Source: a virus (taxonomy: Duplodnaviria; Heunggongvirae; Uroviricota; Caudoviricetes). Taken from it: a DNA stretch of 9,362 nt. Of the stretch, positions 1 through 7,970 are shown in pieces. A model generated the notes under the pieces. It was not told the origin of the DNA and searched no databases. It worked only from the letters and a program-made list of their open reading frames with translations. The position numbers were made by a program, and so were the translations under genes. The stretch lies in the IMG/VR virus record IMGVR_UViG_2663762627_000002; one strand, given 5' to 3'. Position 1 is the stretch's first letter. Each line of letters starts with the position of its first letter.

Positions 1-84
1 GAAGACGCGACAGTTCAACCTGATAAAAAAGAAGAGAAAAAAGACGATACAAATACCGCTGGCACCATTGATATTTACGTCTAA
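1..84 (+). CDS. 3' end of an upstream gene (partial; C-terminal 27 aa ...EDATVQPDKKEEKKDDTNTAGTIDIYV, stop TAA 82-84)
   Basis: Open frame runs from the window edge to TAA at 82-84 and is followed by a terminator hairpin. Product not recognised. Confidence 0.4.
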   Translation, partial: EDATVQPDKKEEKKDDTNTAGTIDIYV

Positions 85-98
85 GTGACAGCCGTATT

Positions 99-121
99 GT
101 GGCCCTCATCGGGCCACTTTT
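99..121 (+). terminator. Rho-independent terminator-like hairpin (GTGGCCC-tcatc-GGGCCAC + TTTT)
   Basis: Perfect 7-bp GC-rich stem (99-105 / 111-117), 5-nt loop, then a T4 run at 118-121, placed 15 bp after the stop of the upstream gene. Confidence 0.6.
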
Positions 122-162
122 CGCCATCAGCCTTTTCTTTAAAGACATATTATCTTTGTATC

Positions 163-212
163 ATTTCTGATAGTTAACATTACAAGAATTTCTGATAGTT
201 AACATTACAAGA
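163..212. repeat. Perfect tandem duplication of a 25-bp unit (ATTTCTGATAGTTAACATTACAAGA x2); putative subterminal transposase-binding repeats of the IS
   Basis: Units at 163-187 and 188-212 are identical. The core AGTTAACATTAC recurs in inverted orientation at 2034-2045, and TTAACATTA at 2009-2017. Confidence 0.85.
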
Positions 213-545
213 TATAAGTAATGGACGCACTCCCAATTAGTCTATTTAAATCGCCACGAGTTTAACTGACAACCCATGATCAATTATGAATTGCAACTAT
301 TTCTGTAGTCACTTTTGTGGGGACAGTCCACAAAACTGCCAACTTCCGCTTCTTGCTCTTAGCGGACATTAGCATAGGCTATTTACCATAACGCCTCATT
401 ACGCGCACCGCCCAGACTGACTCAGCGCGTTTCTGGCATATCCCCGGTAAAACAAGTAACAAACCACCCGAAAATGAACACCAGAAACGCGACTTAAGAA
501 TCTACCCTATGAATGGATATGCACTCAACCGAATCGATCTTGGTT

Positions 546-1859
546 TCAATCTTTTTTATCGGGATCAGGCTTCTTTTTAGGTAACTTCGGGGGCTTAACT
601 TGCTGATGACTTTGCGTTCGGCGCGTAAGCCAGGGATGGTCAGCTTTAGGTTTAACATAGTATTTTGAGCGTAAATCAATACGGGCATTATCCACTCGTT
701 CATGGACACTCTTTTCATCATCCAGTGGTATAGGCTCCGGGCCATCAACATACTTTTCCCAGCCCAGCGCTTTCCCGTCATACAGAACGTTAATTTCACC
801 GTCAAAGTTCTCGCATACAGTAACAACCGAATGCCTAAGTCGATATCCCCGGCCCTCACTGCGTACCTGAAACGCACTGCTTTTGTACTGGAAAGTGAGA
901 TTTTTAGACAGAACGCGCTTCGCCTGTAGGCTGAAGATATAACCCAGTTCCTCTTCAGAATGGTGCACATCAAGATGAGCATTATCAGTAGTACGAGGCG
1001 ACGTAGCGAACCGGTTGTTATAGGCTTCAATAAAGGTCGGCAACCATGCATTTGCTGTTTCAATATCACTGATATTCTGAAGCCGCATTTCTTTGACCAG
1101 CCTGTCCTGTAGTGTCTGATTGGCGCGCTCTACCCGCCCTTTTGCCTGCGGGCTGTTGGCATGGATTGGCTCGATGCCCAGTGTCTTTATCGCACGAGTG
1201 AACTGGGTCAGCTCACCTTCCCGCTCTGGGTTATTTACCCTGAATATACTGTGTCTATCAGAGTAGAGAGCGAGCGGTACGCCATGATCATTAAGGTAAC
1301 CCCGGAGGGTTTCCATGTAAGCCCGGGTTGTTTCAGCAGGCACAAAACGCAACGCCATCAACGCACTGGTGGCATCATCAATGAAAACGATCAGTGTACA
1401 TCTGGGGCCTCGATTTTCAAACCAGTCATGAGGTGAGCCATCAATCTGGATCAGTTCACCGTAAGATGGTCGTCGCATGCGGCGTTGATATATACGGGCA
1501 ATTTTACGACGGCGTTCACGCCATAACCCCTCTTCTATCATCCACTTTCTGAGAGTTTCAACGGATAAAGATAAACCGTGTATCTCGCGCAATTTTTCGC
1601 ACGCAAACGTAGGTCCAAAATCAGCGTAACGGCCTTTGAGGAGTGAAATTACTGTTGCTCTGAATTCAGTAGAAAAGGAATTATTAGGACGCTTTCCACG
1701 TCGGTGGGAAACCAGACCAGAAGGCCCTTCATTTCTATACCGTTGCACCAGACGTTTAACCTGCCGAATAGAAATGCCAATGCGTGCCGCAGCTTGTTCC
1801 TGAATAATCTGAAGTCGGTGGAGTTCCTTATGACTCATCGTAACAGTCTCTTTGATCAT
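546..1859 (-). CDS. DDE transposase with integrase (rve) catalytic core and N-terminal helix-turn-helix, 437 aa
   Basis: ATG start at 1859 with a G-rich stretch upstream. N-terminal HTH-like segment (ARIGISIRQVKRLVQRY). Catalytic motifs ...FIDDATS..., ...LYSDRHSIF..., ...NSPQAKGRVERANQTL... match the D, D, E pattern of retroviral-integrase-type transposases. Family assignment is from memory. Confidence 0.9.
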   Translation of the reverse strand: MIKETVTMSHKELHRLQIIQEQAAARIGISIRQVKRLVQRYRNEGPSGLVSHRRGKRPNNSFSTEFRATVISLLKGRYADFGPTFACEKLREIHGLSLSVETLRKWMIEEGLWRERRRKIARIYQRRMRRPSYGELIQIDGSPHDWFENRGPRCTLIVFIDDATSALMALRFVPAETTRAYMETLRGYLNDHGVPLALYSDRHSIFRVNNPEREGELTQFTRAIKTLGIEPIHANSPQAKGRVERANQTLQDRLVKEMRLQNISDIETANAWLPTFIEAYNNRFATSPRTTDNAHLDVHHSEEELGYIFSLQAKRVLSKNLTFQYKSSAFQVRSEGRGYRLRHSVVTVCENFDGEINVLYDGKALGWEKYVDGPEPIPLDDEKSVHERVDNARIDLRSKYYVKPKADHPWLTRRTQSHQQVKPPKLPKKKPDPDKKD

Positions 1860-2008
1860 GAAAAATCCCCCAGAGAATTGTCTGGGGACATTTTAGAATG
1901 GTTCAAAGGGGACATTACAGCTTGGTGTTAACAATAGCCTGCTTCTCCGTGCCTTTCGGCACGTAAGAGGCTAACCTACATGTGTCTAGCATGAAATTGG
2001 CCTCAGAT

Positions 2009-2045
2009 TAATGTTAAGCGTCTTGCAGGACGCGTAATGTTAACT
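2009..2045. repeat. Right-end inverted copies of the IS subterminal motif (TAATGTTAA at 2009-2017; GTAATGTTAACT at 2034-2045)
   Basis: These are reverse complements of the core of the 25-bp tandem units at 163-212, with similar spacing. Confidence 0.65.
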
Positions 2046-2193
2046 GGGGCTTTTCTCTATCTGCCGTTGGTGTCCATGCCCGAGGCAGATAGCCTCAAGC
2101 ACCCGCAGTCATTCTACTTAACTAAGATTTCCCCGCAAACCGTTTTTGTCCAGCACAGTAAATATCCAACTAAACCAATGGAGTTCGCTGTAT

Positions 2194-2373
2194 TTACCGC
2201 CAGTATTCAATGCACATGACCGCCATGAACACCCCTAAAAAAAGGGCATTTATATATCCAAATATTAATATCAAAACATCAACTTTTTCCATATACCTTG
2301 CTGTGAAGATGATGGGCATACATGATGCGAACAACCAGAACGCAACAAACAAAAACTGCAATGCGTTTTTCAT
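2194..2373 (-). CDS. Small hydrophobic membrane protein, 59 aa, two predicted TM helices (MKNALQFLFVAFWLFASCMPIIFTARYMEKVDVLILIFGYINALFLGVFMAVMCIEYWR)
   Basis: ATG at 2373 is preceded by a consensus Shine-Dalgarno AGGAGG with a 5-nt spacer (plus-strand CCTCCT at 2379-2384). Two hydrophobic stretches; stop TAA at 2194-2196. The ORF-track entry 2194-2412 begins at an upstream GTG. Confidence 0.5.
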   Translation of the reverse strand: MKNALQFLFVAFWLFASCMPIIFTARYMEKVDVLILIFGYINALFLGVFMAVMCIEYWR

Positions 2374-2627
2374 TATTCCTCCTACAATCAATGTGCAATT
2401 ACATTTAAACACACCTCAATTTGGCCGGACATATAAATATCTAAACCAGAAAAAATCACTTACATAGCGTTACAAACTCTTTAGTCTAAAGGTTCATCGT
2501 AAAACATTCCCCATACTTATCAGTCCGTTCCGCGCCAGGTAGCTCATTGCCTTATCTGGCAACCTGTAATCAGGTTTCCGCTTTTTCAGTTGGCTGGTCG
2601 TTTAACCGACATAGTTAATCCATTAAT

Positions 2628-2915
2628 CTAGTTGCCGGATGTTGGTGGATTTTCGCGTTTTAGTTGTTCATAAAAGTGCACAGCTTTAACCAGTTCTTCT
2701 GATGTAACTGGGACTGGTGAGGCAGTGAATAAGGCCTGAATTTGATAGTTCGGCCTGTCGTTACAATCCTCTTTTTTCGGTACATATTTCCAGTCACCAG
2801 ACCACTACTTCCCCTGAAAGTCCGTAACGCCTTTTTTCACGTAGCGATATCGCCATGCCACTGGTTTTGCTTGCCCCGCCGTTTCATGCCCTTCCTGATA
2901 ATTAATCTCGCTCAT
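2628..2915 (-). pseudogene. Stop-interrupted ORF: 36 codons (MSEINYQEGHETAGQAKPVAWRYRYVKKGVTDFQGK), in-frame TAG, then 58 further in-frame codons (WSGDWKYVPKKEDCNDRPNYQIQALFTASPVPVTSEELVKAVHFYEQLKRENPPTSGN)
   Basis: Manual minus-strand translation. A single amber codon (plus 2805-2807) splits an otherwise continuous ~95-codon frame. Lies in a region where every ORF is very short, consistent with gene decay. Confidence 0.3.
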
Positions 2916-3525
2916 TCATCGCCCCACTCATCACAATATGCTTCGACCGGAGTTTTTCCCGCTTCATAGTCATCACGCTAGGATTCGACATCAGCAGCAC
3001 TTCCACCGCGTAACTCACCATAGTCCATTAATAGTTCATCCCGCTCTTCAAAACTGATGTTATATTTGGCTGAACAAAAATCAGCCACTTTGTTCTTCCT
3101 CATCGTCTTTTATTTCGTGGTATGAGTAATTGCAGTAGTTAAAGAAAATTTCTTATGCTCCGTCATGAATTTCCTCAGGTGTTGCGTCATCGTCCACTTC
3201 GAATACATCCTCAAAATCTCCACCAGCTATTCCCGTTTCAATAATAATTTTGAACTTTCGCATTTCACTACCGCCCTTTCGGGCGGCCTCCTGATGTTCT
3301 GAGGGTGCAGAAATCCATCCGGTTAAGGATTAAATTTTATTTACAGAACTGAATTTAATTATTCAGATATACGTATCTGTAGCCTTACGAATCTACTCAC
3401 TGGATGCCTCTTTCATAAAAATAATCCAGTGGGTTTTATCGTTTTTTCCCTGTTCGTTGACAGATAACAGGTTTTCTGTCTGTCAGTGCCAGAATCTGGC
3501 TTACCGGTATTTGCGTTTCATTCCA

Positions 3526-3882
3526 TTAAAAAATCAGAACGCCGTGCGGCCTCAACACCCGAAAGGCTTCTTTAAATCTCTGTCGCGAATCATCACGCCA
3601 GGCATCTTTATTCAGCCGTCCATATTTCTTTCCCATCCAGGCGTTATCACCAACACTCTCAAGATGCGGAGGGTCTAATACAACCATCGAAAAAGATGCG
3701 TCTGCAAATGATAATGCACGAAAATCTGCGATAATGTCAGGGCTGATAATCAAGCGTCTCCCATTGCGTAATGTGTATCCTTCTTTTCTGATATCGCTGA
3801 ATATCGCCCGTTCGTCAGACTTATCGAACCAGAACATGCGGCTGCCACAGCACATATCAAGAATGGTTGCCGGTGCACTCAC
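3526..3882 (-). CDS. Compact SAM-dependent DNA methyltransferase-like protein, 118 aa, possibly C-terminally truncated
   Basis: GTG start overlaps the stop of the upstream gene (GTGA at 3879-3882). Contains ILDMCCGS (motif I-like), VVLDPPH (DPPY/H-type motif of amino-methyltransferases) and LRPHGVLIF. Ends at TAA with no plausible continuation in any frame. Confidence 0.55.
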   Translation of the reverse strand: MSAPATILDMCCGSRMFWFDKSDERAIFSDIRKEGYTLRNGRRLIISPDIIADFRALSFADASFSMVVLDPPHLESVGDNAWMGKKYGRLNKDAWRDDSRQRFKEAFRVLRPHGVLIF

Positions 3883-4301
3883 TGCGCCACGTCCTGAAAA
3901 TTACCCTGATAGAAAGCCAGTATGCGCTGCATAACTTCGCTCTTCCGGCACTCGCGACAGATTATGTTTAGGCGACTGTCGTAGCGACGTATTTCTCCGT
4001 CAGGTGATGACCAGATAAGGTCCGGATCAACCACAGCAGGTTTCTTCACCTTTGCCCTCGAGAGTTTTTTGCGGGCGTTTTGCCAGTCCTTACGCGCCTG
4101 TTCAGAGGGGAATAACCCGTAGCCGGAGTTGTATACATCGCCACTGGCTACCAGCTCTCTGGCAAGAACGCTCATCAGATATCTAGTCGCACCTGTTTTA
4201 GCTTCCAGTTGCCGTAACGTCTCACGGCCGCTCTGGCGCACGAGTTCCACCACCTGCCATTTAATTTTTTCCCGCTCTTCTTGTGTAAAAACTTTTGCCA
4301 C
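3879..4301 (-). CDS. Hypothetical protein, 140 aa, translationally coupled to the downstream methyltransferase-like gene
   Basis: GTG start at 4301 preceded by AAGGGGGA. Its stop overlaps the start of the 3526-3882 gene. Basic C-terminal half; no recognisable motif. Confidence 0.6.
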   Translation of the reverse strand: MAKVFTQEEREKIKWQVVELVRQSGRETLRQLEAKTGATRYLMSVLARELVASGDVYNSGYGLFPSEQARKDWQNARKKLSRAKVKKPAVVDPDLIWSSPDGEIRRYDSRLNIICRECRKSEVMQRILAFYQGNFQDVAQ

Positions 4302-4341
4302 AAGTCCCCCTTAAAATTACCTCATGACCTGAAATCAACAC

Positions 4342-5361
4342 TTATCCTCTGAAACCAGGCGGAATTTCTGTATCCGGTTCAGAAATATGATTAACACAAC
4401 GCTGTACAGGTGAACGTCCCAGGCGGATGACCAGTTCGTCCCATTTTTCGCGGAGCTTTGACGGGCTCATGATGTTTTTTACCCAGAATGGATCTCGCTG
4501 AACCCGACCAAACATTTCGCAAATTTGTCTGTGGCTTCTGCCATCCAGCATCCGCATTGTGCGCACGTCATTGGCCCAGGCAGTCCAGTTAGGCTCTTTT
4601 GGTCGCATGATCTCGCCATCATCACTGGCTGCCTGTTCGTAGAGACCCACGATCCGCCCCCAGATCCACTGCGCACACGCCAAATCCTCCCTGCTACCCC
4701 ACTGGCGTTTTTTCGCACTAAACACAACCGCGTCGGAGTTCCGGGTTAAAAAATCCTGTTCAGTCGTCTGCGGGTCCGGTTGCGAAGCTTCCGGACGAAA
4801 AGTGTTTTTATTCTCTGTAGTAATCTCTGTTGTATTCTCTGTAAGATCATCAGGCCATTTTGACCCGATGACATTGGGTCGTTTTGAACCAATGGAGCGT
4901 TTCATTTTGACCTCTTCCATCGTGTCATTTTGACCTGATGGAGCGGCGCATTTTGAACCGATGGATTCGCTCAATTTGCCACCATCTAAAAGCTCGCTCC
5001 CATAGTTGATCGTGTAGAAATTGGTCATATCGCGCTTTGATTTATTGAGCTTTTCACAACGCAAAAGCCCCAGCGTTTTCAGACTTGCAAACGCGCGCTT
5101 TAACGTTGACTCTGACCAGAATGGGAACTGTTCCAGCCATTGTTCCGTTGTGTTATAAATCCAGCGAACACCATCACATTCCATGCCGGAGTTGGTATCT
5201 CTCAACCAGTAGTGCAGTTGTTGCAAAACAATGGCTTCGTTTAAGCCAATTTTCATTGCCAGCTGCGTGTTTATAACCAGTGGGCGTTCAGCAAAAAGAA
5301 GGCTCATAATTCCATCCAGCTTTTTGTTGGTATTGCTGTCGATACGCAAGTTTGAAAGCAA
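4342..5361 (-). CDS. Phage replication initiator (replisome-organiser / O-like) with an internal origin; 339 aa as listed, true start probably the ATG at 5307 (322 aa)
   Basis: N-terminal winged-helix-like domain (LNEAIVLQQLHYW...TLKRAFASLKTLGLLR). Central low-complexity linker encoded by DNA iterons. Sits in the lambda O position downstream of the cro-like gene. The track start at 5361 is TTG; ATG 5307 would overlap the upstream gene by 20 bp. Confidence 0.8.
   Translation of the reverse strand: MLSNLRIDSNTNKKLDGIMSLLFAERPLVINTQLAMKIGLNEAIVLQQLHYWLRDTNSGMECDGVRWIYNTTEQWLEQFPFWSESTLKRAFASLKTLGLLRCEKLNKSKRDMTNFYTINYGSELLDGGKLSESIGSKCAAPSGQNDTMEEVKMKRSIGSKRPNVIGSKWPDDLTENTTEITTENKNTFRPEASQPDPQTTEQDFLTRNSDAVVFSAKKRQWGSREDLACAQWIWGRIVGLYEQAASDDGEIMRPKEPNWTAWANDVRTMRMLDGRSHRQICEMFGRVQRDPFWVKNIMSPSKLREKWDELVIRLGRSPVQRCVNHISEPDTEIPPGFRG
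4809..4844. repeat. Three tandem 12-bp repeats (TATTCTCTGTAG / TAATCTCTGTTG / TATTCTCTGTAA) next to the iterons; candidate origin-flanking element
   Basis: Direct repeats with 12-bp period immediately downstream (in the gene's direction) of the iteron array. They encode TTENTTEITTEN in the protein. Confidence 0.7.
4855..4965. repeat. Five iterons, ~23-bp period, consensus CATTTTGA(A)CC-N-GATGG; putative replication origin inside the initiator gene
   Basis: Copies at about 4856-4870, 4879-4895, 4903-4917, 4926-4941 and 4948-4963. They encode the SIGSK-type repeats of the protein linker. The arrangement matches ori-lambda inside gene O. Confidence 0.8.
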
Positions 5362-5809
5362 TTGCTTTTTCTATAAGTTCGTCAGTTTCACGATCCACTA
5401 CGGCAGGATCAGCAAAAAGCAGTCCGGACTCCACCACATCGCCATATTCTTTGTTTAACCCGGCGATCATGCACGTGATGCTTTTTCCGTCAGTAATTTC
5501 ACGATACAACCTGAAATCATTAATCCGGATAGCCTCCATAATTGCAGGCACTAGCGCCGTGAACTTTTCACGCTTATCCCTGGTGTCGATAGCCTTCCAG
5601 CGTTCAAATATCTTCACTCGATTAACGCCAAGCGCTCGCTGATCAATCGCGCCACCTTCATATGTGACACGCTGAACATCGATGTTCGGGCGCTCTTTCA
5701 AAGCCCAGAATGCTTCAGTGATTAATATCGTCGCCTGCTCCTGTGTCATTCCTGGTCGACATATCCAGGCATCCAGAGCCTCACGAGCCTGTTCAGGAGT
5801 GATTTTCAT
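5288..5809 (-). CDS. Hypothetical early protein, 173 aa, in the CII/YdaT position downstream of the cro-like gene
   Basis: ATG at 5809; overlaps the 3' end of the cro-like gene by 17 bp and the track start of the initiator. Function inferred only from position. Confidence 0.65.
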   Translation of the reverse strand: MKITPEQAREALDAWICRPGMTQEQATILITEAFWALKERPNIDVQRVTYEGGAIDQRALGVNRVKIFERWKAIDTRDKREKFTALVPAIMEAIRINDFRLYREITDGKSITCMIAGLNKEYGDVVESGLLFADPAVVDRETDELIEKAIAFKLAYRQQYQQKAGWNYEPSFC

Positions 5810-7239: not shown

Positions 7240-7612
7240 GTAATTAAGGAGTTCTCCACGGGTGAGGTGGAGTGCGTGCGCCGGACACGGGTGCGCATCC
7301 GGAACTGACAGTTTACTGAAAGGATATTTCCCTGAAAAGTCAGACCATAACGCGAAAGCGCACGGCGAGGTAGCTGGTTCATAGATAGCCTGTCGTTAAA
7401 TTTTCGTCGACCGTGCGCTTCCGGTTGTGGCAACCCGCGAAATGGCGCGGCGGTAAGTATGGCGGGGTTATTCCTTCCCCGTTGAGGACACCGGGTTGTC
7501 AGGTTGACCATACGCTTAAGTGACAACCCCGCTGCAACGCCCTCTGTTATCAATTTTCTGGTGACGTTTGGCGGTATCAGTTTTACTCCGTGACTGCTCT
7601 GCCGCCCTTTTT
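7240..7612. other. GC-rich, ORF-poor, hairpin-dense segment; candidate structured ncRNA or unrecognised element
   Basis: No plus-strand ORF of 60 aa or more across ~400 bp. Many stems, including CTCCAC/GTGGAG (7254-7272), CGC-GAAA-GCG (7351-7360), GCGCACGG/CCGTGCGC (7358-7365 / 7411-7418) and GGGTTGTCA/TGACAACCC (7493-7529). Visibly higher GC than the flanks. Confidence 0.3.
7570..7612 (+). terminator. Terminator-like structure (GGCGG ... CCGCC followed by CTTTTT)
   Basis: Stem 7570-7574 / 7602-7606 encloses a sub-hairpin and is followed by a T5 run at 7608-7612. The large internal loop makes this uncertain. Confidence 0.35.
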
Positions 7613-7617
7613 AAAGT

Positions 7618-7763
7618 GAATTTTGTGATGTGGTGAATGCGGCTGAGCGCACGCGGAACAGTTAAAACCAAAAACAGTGTTATGGGTGGATTCTCTGTAT
7701 CCGGCGTTAATTGTTAACTGGTTAACGTCACCTGGAGGCACCAGGCACTGCATCACAAAATTC
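7618..7763. promoter_or_regulatory. Control region bracketed by a perfect 13-bp inverted repeat (GAATTTTGTGATG 7618-7630 / CATCACAAAATTC 7751-7763), with nested dyads
   Basis: Inside are the dyads ACGTTAA/TTAACGT and CCTGG/CCAGG, two GTTAAC hexamers, and a copy of TTCTCTGTA (7691-7699) that also occurs in the origin-adjacent 12-bp repeats. Ends 19 bp before the ATG at 7782. Confidence 0.4.
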
Positions 7764-7781
7764 ATTGTTGAGGACGCGATA

Positions 7782-7970
7782 ATGAAAACGTTATTACCAA
7801 ACGTTAATACGTCTGAAGGTTGTTTTGAAATTGGTGTCACTATCAGTAACCCAGTATTTACTGAAGATGCCATTAACAAGAGAAAACAAGAACGGGAGCT
7901 ATTAAATAAAATATGCATTGTTTCAATGCTGGCTCGTTTACGTCTGATGCCAAAAGGATGTGCACAATGA
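7782..7970 (+). CDS. Small hypothetical protein, 62 aa (MKTLLPNVNTSEGCFEIGVTISNPVFTEDAINKRKQERELLNKICIVSMLARLRLMPKGCAQ)
   Basis: ATG at 7782 with GAGGA 7 nt upstream. Stop TGA overlaps the start of the next gene (ATGA at 7967-7970). Confidence 0.6.
   Translation: MKTLLPNVNTSEGCFEIGVTISNPVFTEDAINKRKQERELLNKICIVSMLARLRLMPKGCAQ

Follow-up and report, generated by a model that had tools for sequence, protein, structure and literature searches.

The IS1202 family comprises elements with a TnsB-like transposase and two transposase-binding repeats near each end (PMC10132070). Its transposases have two extra Asp residues between D1 and D2 and a Gln seven residues after the Glu (PMC10132070; bioRxiv 2022.12.17.520857). 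The member ISEsa1 is listed as 1,609 bp in length, with a 439-amino-acid transposase, terminal inverted repeats (TIRs) of 15/22, no target-site duplication (TSD) and a target that is not known (ISfinder; PMC10132070). Here we analysed a 9,362-nt stretch of viral DNA (IMG/VR record IMGVR_UViG_2663762627_000002). The whole stretch is called the window below, and all coordinates are counted from its position 1. As judged by comparison of related sequences, its left-hand part very probably represents a 3,299-bp transposon of the IS1202 family, with the transposase arm and some of the cargo, inserted in the hok/sok locus of the Qin prophage. What is new is the form in which a known transposase family occurs here, a cargo transposon with an arm of the toxin-antitoxin (TA) genes relBE, 15-bp TSDs and a strong preference for the start of hok genes.

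At the DNA level the transposase gene is about 98% identical to genes that RefSeq assigns to the ISEsa1 family, and the inverted repeats that the ISfinder entry probably has agree with the inner AATGTCC(C/G)C motifs. Unlike the listed ISEsa1, the unit described here is 3.3–12.8 kb long, its left inverted repeat (IRL) lies 14 bp further out, its right inverted repeat (IRR) is located kilobases away by relBE, and its TSD is 13–16 bp. The ISTde1 subgroup (bioRxiv 2022.12.17.520857) has the same TGT/ACA termini, imperfect repeats of ∼26 bp, a conserved block at about position 20, the Gln at E+7 and TSDs of ∼15–17 bp. Its members are single-gene insertion sequences (ISs) of 1.3–2 kb with no reported target preference, whereas the elements described here combine a conserved TA arm with cargo that varies, and strongly prefer hok. 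The ISAjo2/ISAba32 subgroup of the same family shows oriented, position-specific insertion near a short conserved plasmid site, 5 bp from XerC/D pdif sites (PMC10132070). Like our element it has a second transposase-binding repeat inside each end (putative in our case) and no accessory targeting proteins. In contrast, the target here is the translation-initiation region of hok, the TSD is 15 bp instead of 5 bp, and cargo is carried. If true, this would be a second case, next to the targeting of pdif, in which IS1202-family members insert in a site-directed manner.

The elements called tIS (ISKpn21, ISKpn65) also combine an IS-type transposase with passenger genes within one pair of inverted repeats. 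They have one hypothetical passenger gene, whereas the cargo here is modular (metal resistance, transporters, flxA/ydfV) and the relBE arm is constant in the enterobacterial ISEsa1-type members; a more distant relative (L038, below) has a GNAT/RHH pair instead. Lima-Mendez and co-workers are said to have described, in 2020, Tn3-family transposons that carry type II TA pairs beside the transposition module. Such a pair is likewise integral to our transposon, but the transposase family and mechanism differ, and the TA genes here read outward across the IRR into the target gene. Tn7, which inserts at attTn7 downstream of glmS, resembles our element in that its transposase is TnsB-like (PMC10132070), its ends have several repeats and it inserts in one orientation at a single conserved site. 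Unlike Tn7, the element contains no TnsA/C/D/E, and its target is a multi-copy mobile gene family whose regulation is disrupted by the insertion.

relBE is among the most studied TA systems, and its partner hokD (relF) has so far been described as a rearranged hok locus. Integration of relBE into hokD from plasmids, truncating an ancestral hok, has been proposed (Ramisetty and Santhosh 2016, as cited in PMC6379469); in the form in which it is cited there, the proposal names no vehicle, ends, TSD or transposase, and flxA/ydfV are not placed in the unit. A single transposition event with a 15-bp TSD would give the origin of relB-relE-hokD a concrete mechanism. ISEsa1-type elements would also gain defined ends, a TSD length and a preferred target, which is useful for the annotation of plasmids, where the vehicle also carries nickel and chromate resistance genes. 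A type II TA transposon homing into type I systems moreover offers an opportunity to test how addiction modules interact. A literature search combining ISEsa1/ISNCY with relBE, hok, flxA or ncr did not reveal a description of the unit; ISfinder and TnCentral were outside this search, and the novelty is provisional.

Ends, target duplication and empty site of the element

The first 2.4 kb of the window are 100% identical to many E. coli chromosomes and are located within the Qin cryptic prophage, where RefSeq labels the identical DNA flxA, 'ydfW' and 'ISNCY family transposase'. E. coli ATCC 8739 (L001, 99.9% identical to the window) and K-12 MG1655 (L002) were used as reference genomes; numbers of this type denote the sequences compared. 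A set of 5,426 complete E. coli genomes was probed, of which 1,192 contained the sequence downstream of flxA and 796 contained the IRL. Relatives were collected by a transposase search of one genome per species and by an IRL search of metagenome and viral contigs, in which 147 exact copies of the IRL were found. The main parts of the element and its target are as follows.

1–1933, minus strand: right-hand 1,933 bp of the IS1202-family (ISEsa1-type) cargo transposon, delimited by IRL, IRR and TSD in ATCC 8739.
546–1859, minus strand: transposase, 437 amino acids, signature D..DD..D..E with Q at E+7 (NF033594).
1884–1892, plus strand: inner subterminal repeat GGGGACATT (AATGTCCCC on the transposase strand), kept in all relatives including those of Hahella.
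1908–1933, minus strand: IRL, 26 bp, TGTTAACACCAAGCTGTAATGTCCCC, with the outer repeat at 1908–1916 and the terminal ACA at 1931–1933.
1934–1948, no strand: right copy of the 15-bp TSD ATAGCCTGCTTCTCC, which read on the minus strand is the hok Shine-Dalgarno sequence plus the 'AT' of the start codon.
1934–2104, minus strand: orphaned 5′ leader of the hokD mRNA and sok antisense region, target DNA (Rfam RF01794).

The full unit of 3,299 bp consists of IRL, transposase, flxA, ydfV, relB, relE and IRR. The 1,366 bp that precede the window on its left side contain the rest of flxA, ydfV, relB, relE and the IRR, which is located between relE and hokD. In ATCC 8739, 71 bp separate relE from hokD; after the hokD Shine-Dalgarno sequence starts TGTCAACGCAAAGCAGAAGTGTCACC, the inverted tip of the IRL, and ATAGCCTGCTTCTCC is found outside both ends of the element. 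The left copy of the TSD abuts hokD, beyond the window. An initial annotation of the window, made from its sequence alone, had advised that other copies be used to define exact termini and TSD; the ends and the 15-bp TSD were read in L001, L005 and L006.

The termini are TGT...ACA, and the inverted repeats TGTTAACACCAAGCTGTAATGTCCCCTTTGA and TGTCAACGCAAAGCAGAAGTGTCACCTTCGG match at 22 of 31 positions. As seen when the two ends are compared (TGTTAACACC...TGTC(20–23) and TGTCAACGCA...TGTC(20–23)), a TGTC core is located at positions 20–23 from both ends and again at ∼44–48, i.e. 24–25 bp further in. The true paired subterminal repeats in the window are GGGGACATT at 1884–1892 and 1908–1916, corresponding to AATGTCCCC at element positions 42–50 and 18–26 on the IRL side; the motifs on the IRR side, AAGTGTCACC and AGATGTCATG, are 25 nt apart. 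These AATGTCCCC-like motifs, two per true end and ∼24 bp apart, are probable transposase-binding repeats. The suggestion in the initial annotation that paired subterminal sites are present was thus right in kind, since the family has two near each end, but other repeats had been chosen for them.

Rfam model sok (RF01794) matched 1933–2104 on the minus strand over its full length, with 104.1 bits (E 2e-23; gathering score 59), and the final AUG of the model aligns with 1935–1933. The leader with its sok region and the HokD open reading frame (ORF) after the IRR are the two parts of one hok/sok locus, contiguous in 1,146 genomes. When the element was removed in silico, leaving the flanks and one 15-mer (600 nt), the resulting sequence was found uninterrupted, in one piece and at 99% identity, in 1,146 of the 5,426 E. 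coli genomes. In one such empty-site Qin-like prophage, rem-hokD is followed by the nin/replication genes, and relBE, ydfV, flxA and the transposase are all lacking; this is the uninterrupted prophage whose comparison had been recommended. Because the TSD is a perfect 15 bp and natural empty sites exist, the insertion was a simple one and nothing was deleted, contrary to the idea that it had caused loss of the late region.

K-12 MG1655 lacks window positions 731–5529 (4.8 kb). This deletion begins inside the transposase gene, not at an end of the element, and has removed the IRL, the hok leader and prophage replication genes; the K-12 gene 'ydfW' is a C-terminal transposase fragment and 'ydfX' the remnant of a ydaT-like gene. 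K-12 could not reveal the transposition, because the other end of the element has been lost there.

The following course of events is proposed. Ordinary DDE transposition into the Qin hok/sok locus would have duplicated 15 bp, which comprise the Shine-Dalgarno sequence and the initial two nucleotides of the start codon. Read on the minus strand, the element consists of IRL (1933), ISEsa1-type transposase, a probable decayed inner IRR, flxA/ydfV, relB-relE and IRR. The hok promoter, the mok/tac leader and sok would have been stranded to the right of the IRL (1934–2104), while the hok coding sequence would have retained its own, duplicated ribosome-binding site directly downstream of relE. A relB-relE-hokD operon would have been created in this way, with hok presumably driven by the relBE promoter thereafter. 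A Hok ORF with its own ribosome-binding site behind relE fits the co-transcription reported for relB-relE-relF (Gotfredsen and Gerdes 1998, as cited in PMC5120126).

Transposase and family membership

The claim of the initial annotation that the locus contains a mobile element was borne out; its transposase, encoded by the ORF at 546–1859, is of the DDE type. The product has the motifs IQIDGS ... FIDDATS ... YSDRHS ... VERANQTLQ, i.e. two extra Asp residues between D1 and D2 and a Gln at E+7, as in the IS1202 family. It matched NCBIfam ISNCY_2 (NF033594) with 456 bits (cut-off 250), and the gene is ∼98% identical in DNA to genes annotated in RefSeq as 'IS1202-like element ISEsa1 family transposase'. 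A sequence search of the PDB gave as its sole match a marginal and uninformative one to a retroviral-integrase core (E 0.0098). The TGT/ACA ends with imperfect inverted repeats of ∼24–26 bp, the conserved block near position 20 and a second internal copy of the inverted-repeat motif (the putative binding part) near each end are also those of the IS1202 family.

TSDs were 15 bp in Qin, L005, L006, L086, L008 and L011, 13–16 bp in L014, L025, L091 and L163, and 15–17 bp in 12 Hahella copies. On account of this length the clade is placed with the 15–17-bp (ISTde1-type) subgroup. The element is not a simple IS free of passenger genes, as flxA, ydfV, relB and relE lie between IRL and IRR. The ORF inventories of six element variants contained no homologues of TnsA, TnsC, TnsD or TnsE.

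Relative to plasmid transposases of 446 amino acids, the gene in the window has a 27-bp in-frame deletion at ∼1797/1798, between TCCTGA direct repeats, which removes nine residues (ESINRHITQ) of the N-terminal region. The deletion junction was found in 528 of the 796 E. coli genomes with the IRL, in all cases on the chromosome, and the chromosomal element is essentially single-copy per genome. To judge from its sequence, the Qin copy is probably an immobile fossil.

Cargo variants and distribution

Enterobacterial elements of 3.3, 4.5, 4.6, 5.8, 6.1, 7.7 and 12.8 kb were found. All have the plan [IRL-tnp][variable cargo, 1–11 kb][relB-relE-IRR] and TSDs of 13–16 bp. Their constant parts are an IRL-transposase arm of ∼1.6 kb and a relB-relE-IRR arm of 713 bp with 96–99% identity. 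The cargo consists, for example, of flxA and ydfV, of two DMT-type genes with a LysR regulator, of ncrABCY, chrBA and hupE, or of genes for a cytochrome b561 and a cation-diffusion transporter, the last with or without an IS110 or IS30 insertion.

The 3.3-kb element itself is present, 98% identical, in an Enterobacter IncF plasmid (TSD ATGGCCTTCTTCTCC), and also in a Salmonella IncI plasmid (TSD ATCATAGCCCCTCCA) and in Shigella, each copy separating the leader of a different hok gene from the Hok ORF. Perfect 15-bp TSDs flank this element at three different hok loci (Qin, Enterobacter and Salmonella), and different TSDs accompany it in L005, L006 and L017. The longest element, of 12,843 bp (716–13558 of L086, plasmid pMRY16-398_1), is flanked by GGAGAAGTCAGCTAT in another hok gene. 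Its cargo, located between relBE and the transposase arm, is ncrABCY (nickel), chrBA (chromate) and hupE. This element may be what mobilises the ncr locus known from plasmids of Enterobacter and Klebsiella.

In Scandinavium hiltneri (L038), an element of 4,275 bp with a 15-bp TSD is 70% identical in the nucleotide sequence of the transposase gene. A GNAT-toxin/RHH-antitoxin pair adjoins its IRR in place of relBE, and a TA module at the IRR end may be a general feature. Hahella sp. SMD15-11 (L026–L037, L051) contains at least 12 copies of a simple IS of 1,448–1,449 bp with 62% amino acid identity, whose TSDs of 15–17 bp are often preceded by CAA. In one of these loci, L027, two tandem copies share one TSD.

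A 3.3-kb element in an IMG/VR contig (L233) has a pndA-type hok leader at the IRL, a hokD-type ORF at the IRR and no TSD. As a recombinant between two copies, it shows how copies without direct repeats can originate.

Insertion at hok genes

hok leaders made up 36 of the 52 distinct 40-nt contexts beside the IRL. They were recognised with an nhmmer profile built from Rfam-confirmed leaders, because the Rfam gathering threshold missed some of them (L008, L016, L022). Several further contexts keep a hok-type Shine-Dalgarno sequence. The insertion point is at the hok ribosome-binding site or start codon and the orientation is always the same, with the IRL beside the leader and the IRR and outward-reading relBE beside the Hok ORF. 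The Rfam sok model stops exactly at the IRL in the window, L007, L011, L014, L023, L025 and L039. At least 12 distinct duplicated sequences were found, and the IRR abuts at least eight Hok homologues (HokD-, R1 Hok-, PndA-, HokE- and HokC-like). We take the ends, the TSD, the empty sites, the modular cargo and the recurrent insertion at the same position of hok as established by this comparison.

Several points weigh against the interpretation as a cargo transposon that prefers hok. All the support is comparative and transposition itself was not observed. The window holds only one end, the other being read from the 99.9%-identical genome. Some copies lack a TSD (none was assigned in L007, L010, L016, L021, L035 and L039), and at junctions of the L003/L004 type the TSD was found only after the locus had been extended. 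The Qin copy, with its deletion of nine residues and its single-copy state, may be inactive. About 30% of the junctions are outside hok, so the targeting of hok is a strong preference, not an absolute rule, and 36 is too high a figure for independent events because many of the hok contexts are homologous to one another.

It is on balance probable that the preference for hok is directed by the transposase, which may select its target through a GGCAA-type motif beside the duplicated stretch. The main alternative is selection or sampling: insertion would be near random, and the excess of hok sites would result from selection (hok uncoupled from sok, control by relBE) or from over-sampling. In accordance with this, the Hahella relatives occupy many unrelated sites, the enterobacterial junctions include the non-hok fraction given above, and the databases are biased to clinical plasmids, which are rich in hok. 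However, the left edge of the TSD is at the same nucleotide in nearly all hok homologues, directly after the GGCAA of the hairpin preceding the hok Shine-Dalgarno sequence, and in one orientation. GGCA(A/T) also adjoins the TSD in 4–5 of ∼12 non-hok sites; at the Hahella sites, CAA has this position in 6 of 11. In L022 (∼6527) and L158 (∼11700), second elements appear to use the same 15-mer: an IRR, 10–15 bp and the IRL of a second element follow one another, e.g. ...GCGTTGACA GGAGAAAAAGGCTAT TGTTAAC..., as would result from a further insertion at this 15-mer or from dimerisation in tandem. With these observations, near-random insertion appears unlikely.

The second alternative is that the elements spread by homologous recombination through conserved hok flanks, or by movement of whole segments, without any target specificity. 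The hok leaders and ORFs are indeed 70–80% similar, the viral contig L233 is a clear recombinant, and the Qin copy has been inherited vertically within E. coli. Against this, each hok homologue has its own 15-mer on both sides, matching its own Shine-Dalgarno sequence and ATG, whereas recombination would bring along the junctions of the donor. Insertions flanked by TSDs also occur outside hok (L018, L038), and the cargo varies among elements in different hok genes. We therefore regard this explanation as very improbable.

At the non-hok insertion in Kluyvera (L018), the DNA adjacent to the IRL matches Rfam isrO (4837–4950; 58.8 bits, gathering score 42), and the match extends 24 nt into the IRL. 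A dif-like reading of the motif TAATGTTAA in the hok leader was considered, since it resembles a XerD arm and some IS1202 members target pdif; it was rejected, as Rfam places the motif in the sok-target hairpin. No 28-bp dif-like site was found 5–6 bp from the IRL, where the adjoining sequence is the hok Shine-Dalgarno sequence and the TSD is 15 bp.

Relation to the listed ISEsa1

Transposase copies on plasmids in another context match the window only at ∼338–1935. A pair of motifs is located near the left limit of this match.

341–370, no strand: inverted pair of degenerate copies of the transposase motif, AACTTCCGC ... GCGGACATT; the cargo variants diverge just past it (∼330–351).

The pair, conserved downstream of the transposase gene as AATGTCCGC-N12-GCGGACNTT, is probably a vestigial inner IRR, as suggested by its sequence. 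In the plasmid copies, the stretch that runs from the outer AATGTCCCC motif up to the inner GCGGACNTT...GG measures exactly 1,609 bp. This arithmetic of lengths suggests that the ISfinder entry for ISEsa1 was delimited on the decayed inner IRR (341–370) and is thus mis-delimited. An IRL at 1919 (TGTAATGTCCCC) with a left end at ∼338, as drawn from the limits of plasmid homology, was rejected because the outer 14 bp are invariant and no TSD fits. Similarly, the 'ncrY context' of L003/L004 was first taken as the flank of a short element. The plasmid 'ISEsa1' beside ncrY had seemed to be a 1.6-kb IS without TSD, and after extension of the locus it proved to be an arm of the 12,843-bp element, with the ncrY context as its cargo.

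A third alternative follows the listing: ISEsa1 would be a simple 1.6-kb IS (∼338–1919, no TSD) that happens to adjoin a relBE-flxA island to which it is unrelated, and the larger unit would not be mobile as a whole. The ISfinder/PMC10132070 data (1,609 bp, TIR 15/22, no TSD) speak for it, as do the fit of the 1,609-bp interval to the motif distance in the plasmid copies, if our arithmetic is correct, and a decayed IRR-like tip, TTGGTTGACG, seen at this place in L086. On the other hand, the 1,609-bp interval lacks a flanking TSD in every copy examined, the outer 14 bp GCTTGGTGTTAACA do not vary from one context to another and close with the ACA of the family, perfect TSDs of 13–16 bp surround large units of seven lengths, and the empty sites lack the whole 3.3 kb. 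A simple ISEsa1 is accordingly hardly to be expected.

The cargo transposon with ends at IRL and IRR also allows a wider proposal, which we put forward tentatively and with rather more doubt than conviction. ISEsa1-type elements would be a new family of cargo transposons with a relBE arm that home to the ribosome-binding site or start codon of hok through GGCAA and the leader hairpin, strip away the control by sok and mok, place hok under the outward-reading relBE promoter and build a relB-relE-hok addiction operon. E. coli relBEF would be the scar of such an insertion, and the ISfinder ISEsa1 a mis-delimited arm.

Repeats within and beside the element

The initial annotation had proposed one IS spanning 157–2047, with duplicated 25-bp subterminal repeats at both ends. 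The features concerned are as follows.

1–84, plus strand: 3′ end of the cargo gene flxA, stop codon at 82–84 (RefSeq annotation of identical DNA and sequence).
99–121, plus strand: flxA terminator hairpin GTGGCCC-TCATC-GGGCCAC followed by TTTT, read from the sequence.
163–212, no strand: perfect tandem duplication of 25 bp in non-coding cargo; single in K-12, L005 and L006, present in 30 of 1,192 genomes.
2009–2045, no strand: supposed right-hand 'inverted copies', by Rfam model alignment two direct copies of TTAACATTA on the minus strand.

The repeats themselves are present as described. Perfect copies of ATTTCTGATAGTTAACATTACAAGA are located at 163–187 and 188–212; 2034–2045 is the exact reverse complement of AGTTAACATTAC (172–183 and 197–208); and a second, shorter right-hand copy, TAATGTTAA, is found at 2009–2017. 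The right-hand copies are 26 nt apart and the left-hand ones 25 nt, so the spacing is nearly equal, as had been noticed. What did not hold is their reading as ends of an IS of that extent. The true right end is at 1933 and the left end ∼1.37 kb outside the window start, and flxA with its terminator, taken for neighbours of the IS, is cargo inside the element. The 25-bp repeats belong to the cargo and the right-hand copies to the target, where the TAATGTTAA copies are part of the hok/sok leader. The two TTAACATTA copies border 16 nt that are inserted in the sok-target hairpin in the Qin hok leader, and they are not present beside elements with 98%-identical cargo in other hok loci (L005, L006).

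A probe for the duplication junction was positive in 30 of the 5,426 E. coli genomes, as against 1,192 with the adjacent sequence downstream of flxA, and a single unit is found in K-12 MG1655 and in two plasmid copies of the same DNA (L005, L006). The tandem repeat is a rare, lineage-specific, recent duplication in cargo DNA and not a transposon end. Its reading as an excision footprint of an IS with a long TSD (IS1202 subgroup, 27–28 bp) was rejected; nothing was found in favour of it, and the tandem is a clean one of 2.0 copies in 30 genomes.

When the 2.4-kb region was shuffled, 21 of 300 shuffles (7%) contained an exact inverted repeat that was 12 nt or longer and had its arms separated by more than 1 kb. 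In a shuffle restricted to the two flanks, which were picked post hoc, the 12-nt inverted match occurred in 4 of 5,000 (0.08%). The match between AGTTAACATTAC and 2034–2045 is not clearly above chance.

A ∼1.9-kb IS at 157–2047 whose transposase binds the left 25-bp units and the right inverted cores can be given practically no credence: although the core is exactly inverted at similar spacing and rare in the flank-only shuffle, the 25-bp unit is single in ∼97% of the E. coli genomes with the region, transposase copies elsewhere share nothing left of ∼330–351 or right of 1933, the right copies lie within a full-length hok/sok leader, 157–2047 has no flanking direct repeat, and the whole-region shuffles gave the match in 7% of cases. 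The initial annotation had itself held that transposase copies without these repeats would speak against them as ends; L003, L004, L086, L008, L018 and L025 are such copies, and the model is thereby refuted.

Through the 12-mer shared by 172–183 and 2034–2045, Sok RNA would be complementary to a flxA read-through transcript; this is probably due to chance.

Other features of the window

Two further features belong to the element.

313–335, no strand: palindrome TTTTGTGG-N7-CCACAAAA, found in the flxA-type cargo only, adjoining the boundary of the transposase module.
1867–1888, minus strand: terminator-like hairpin with a T run, a consensus match only, just upstream of the transposase ATG.

The palindrome had been correctly recognised by the initial annotation and was not found in the other cargo variants. 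The hairpin at 1867–1888 overlaps the inner end repeat and, from its sequence and position, probably blocks read-through from the hok promoter. A promoter/terminator scan of 1–2300 gave counts at the level of chance, and its consensus, which requires at least five T, missed the flxA terminator.

In the right-hand part of the window, the small RNA DicF was located at 7556–7607 (Rfam, 76.7 bits). Directly after it, at 7605–7814, there is a sub-threshold STnc100-like match (34 bits, gathering score 47).

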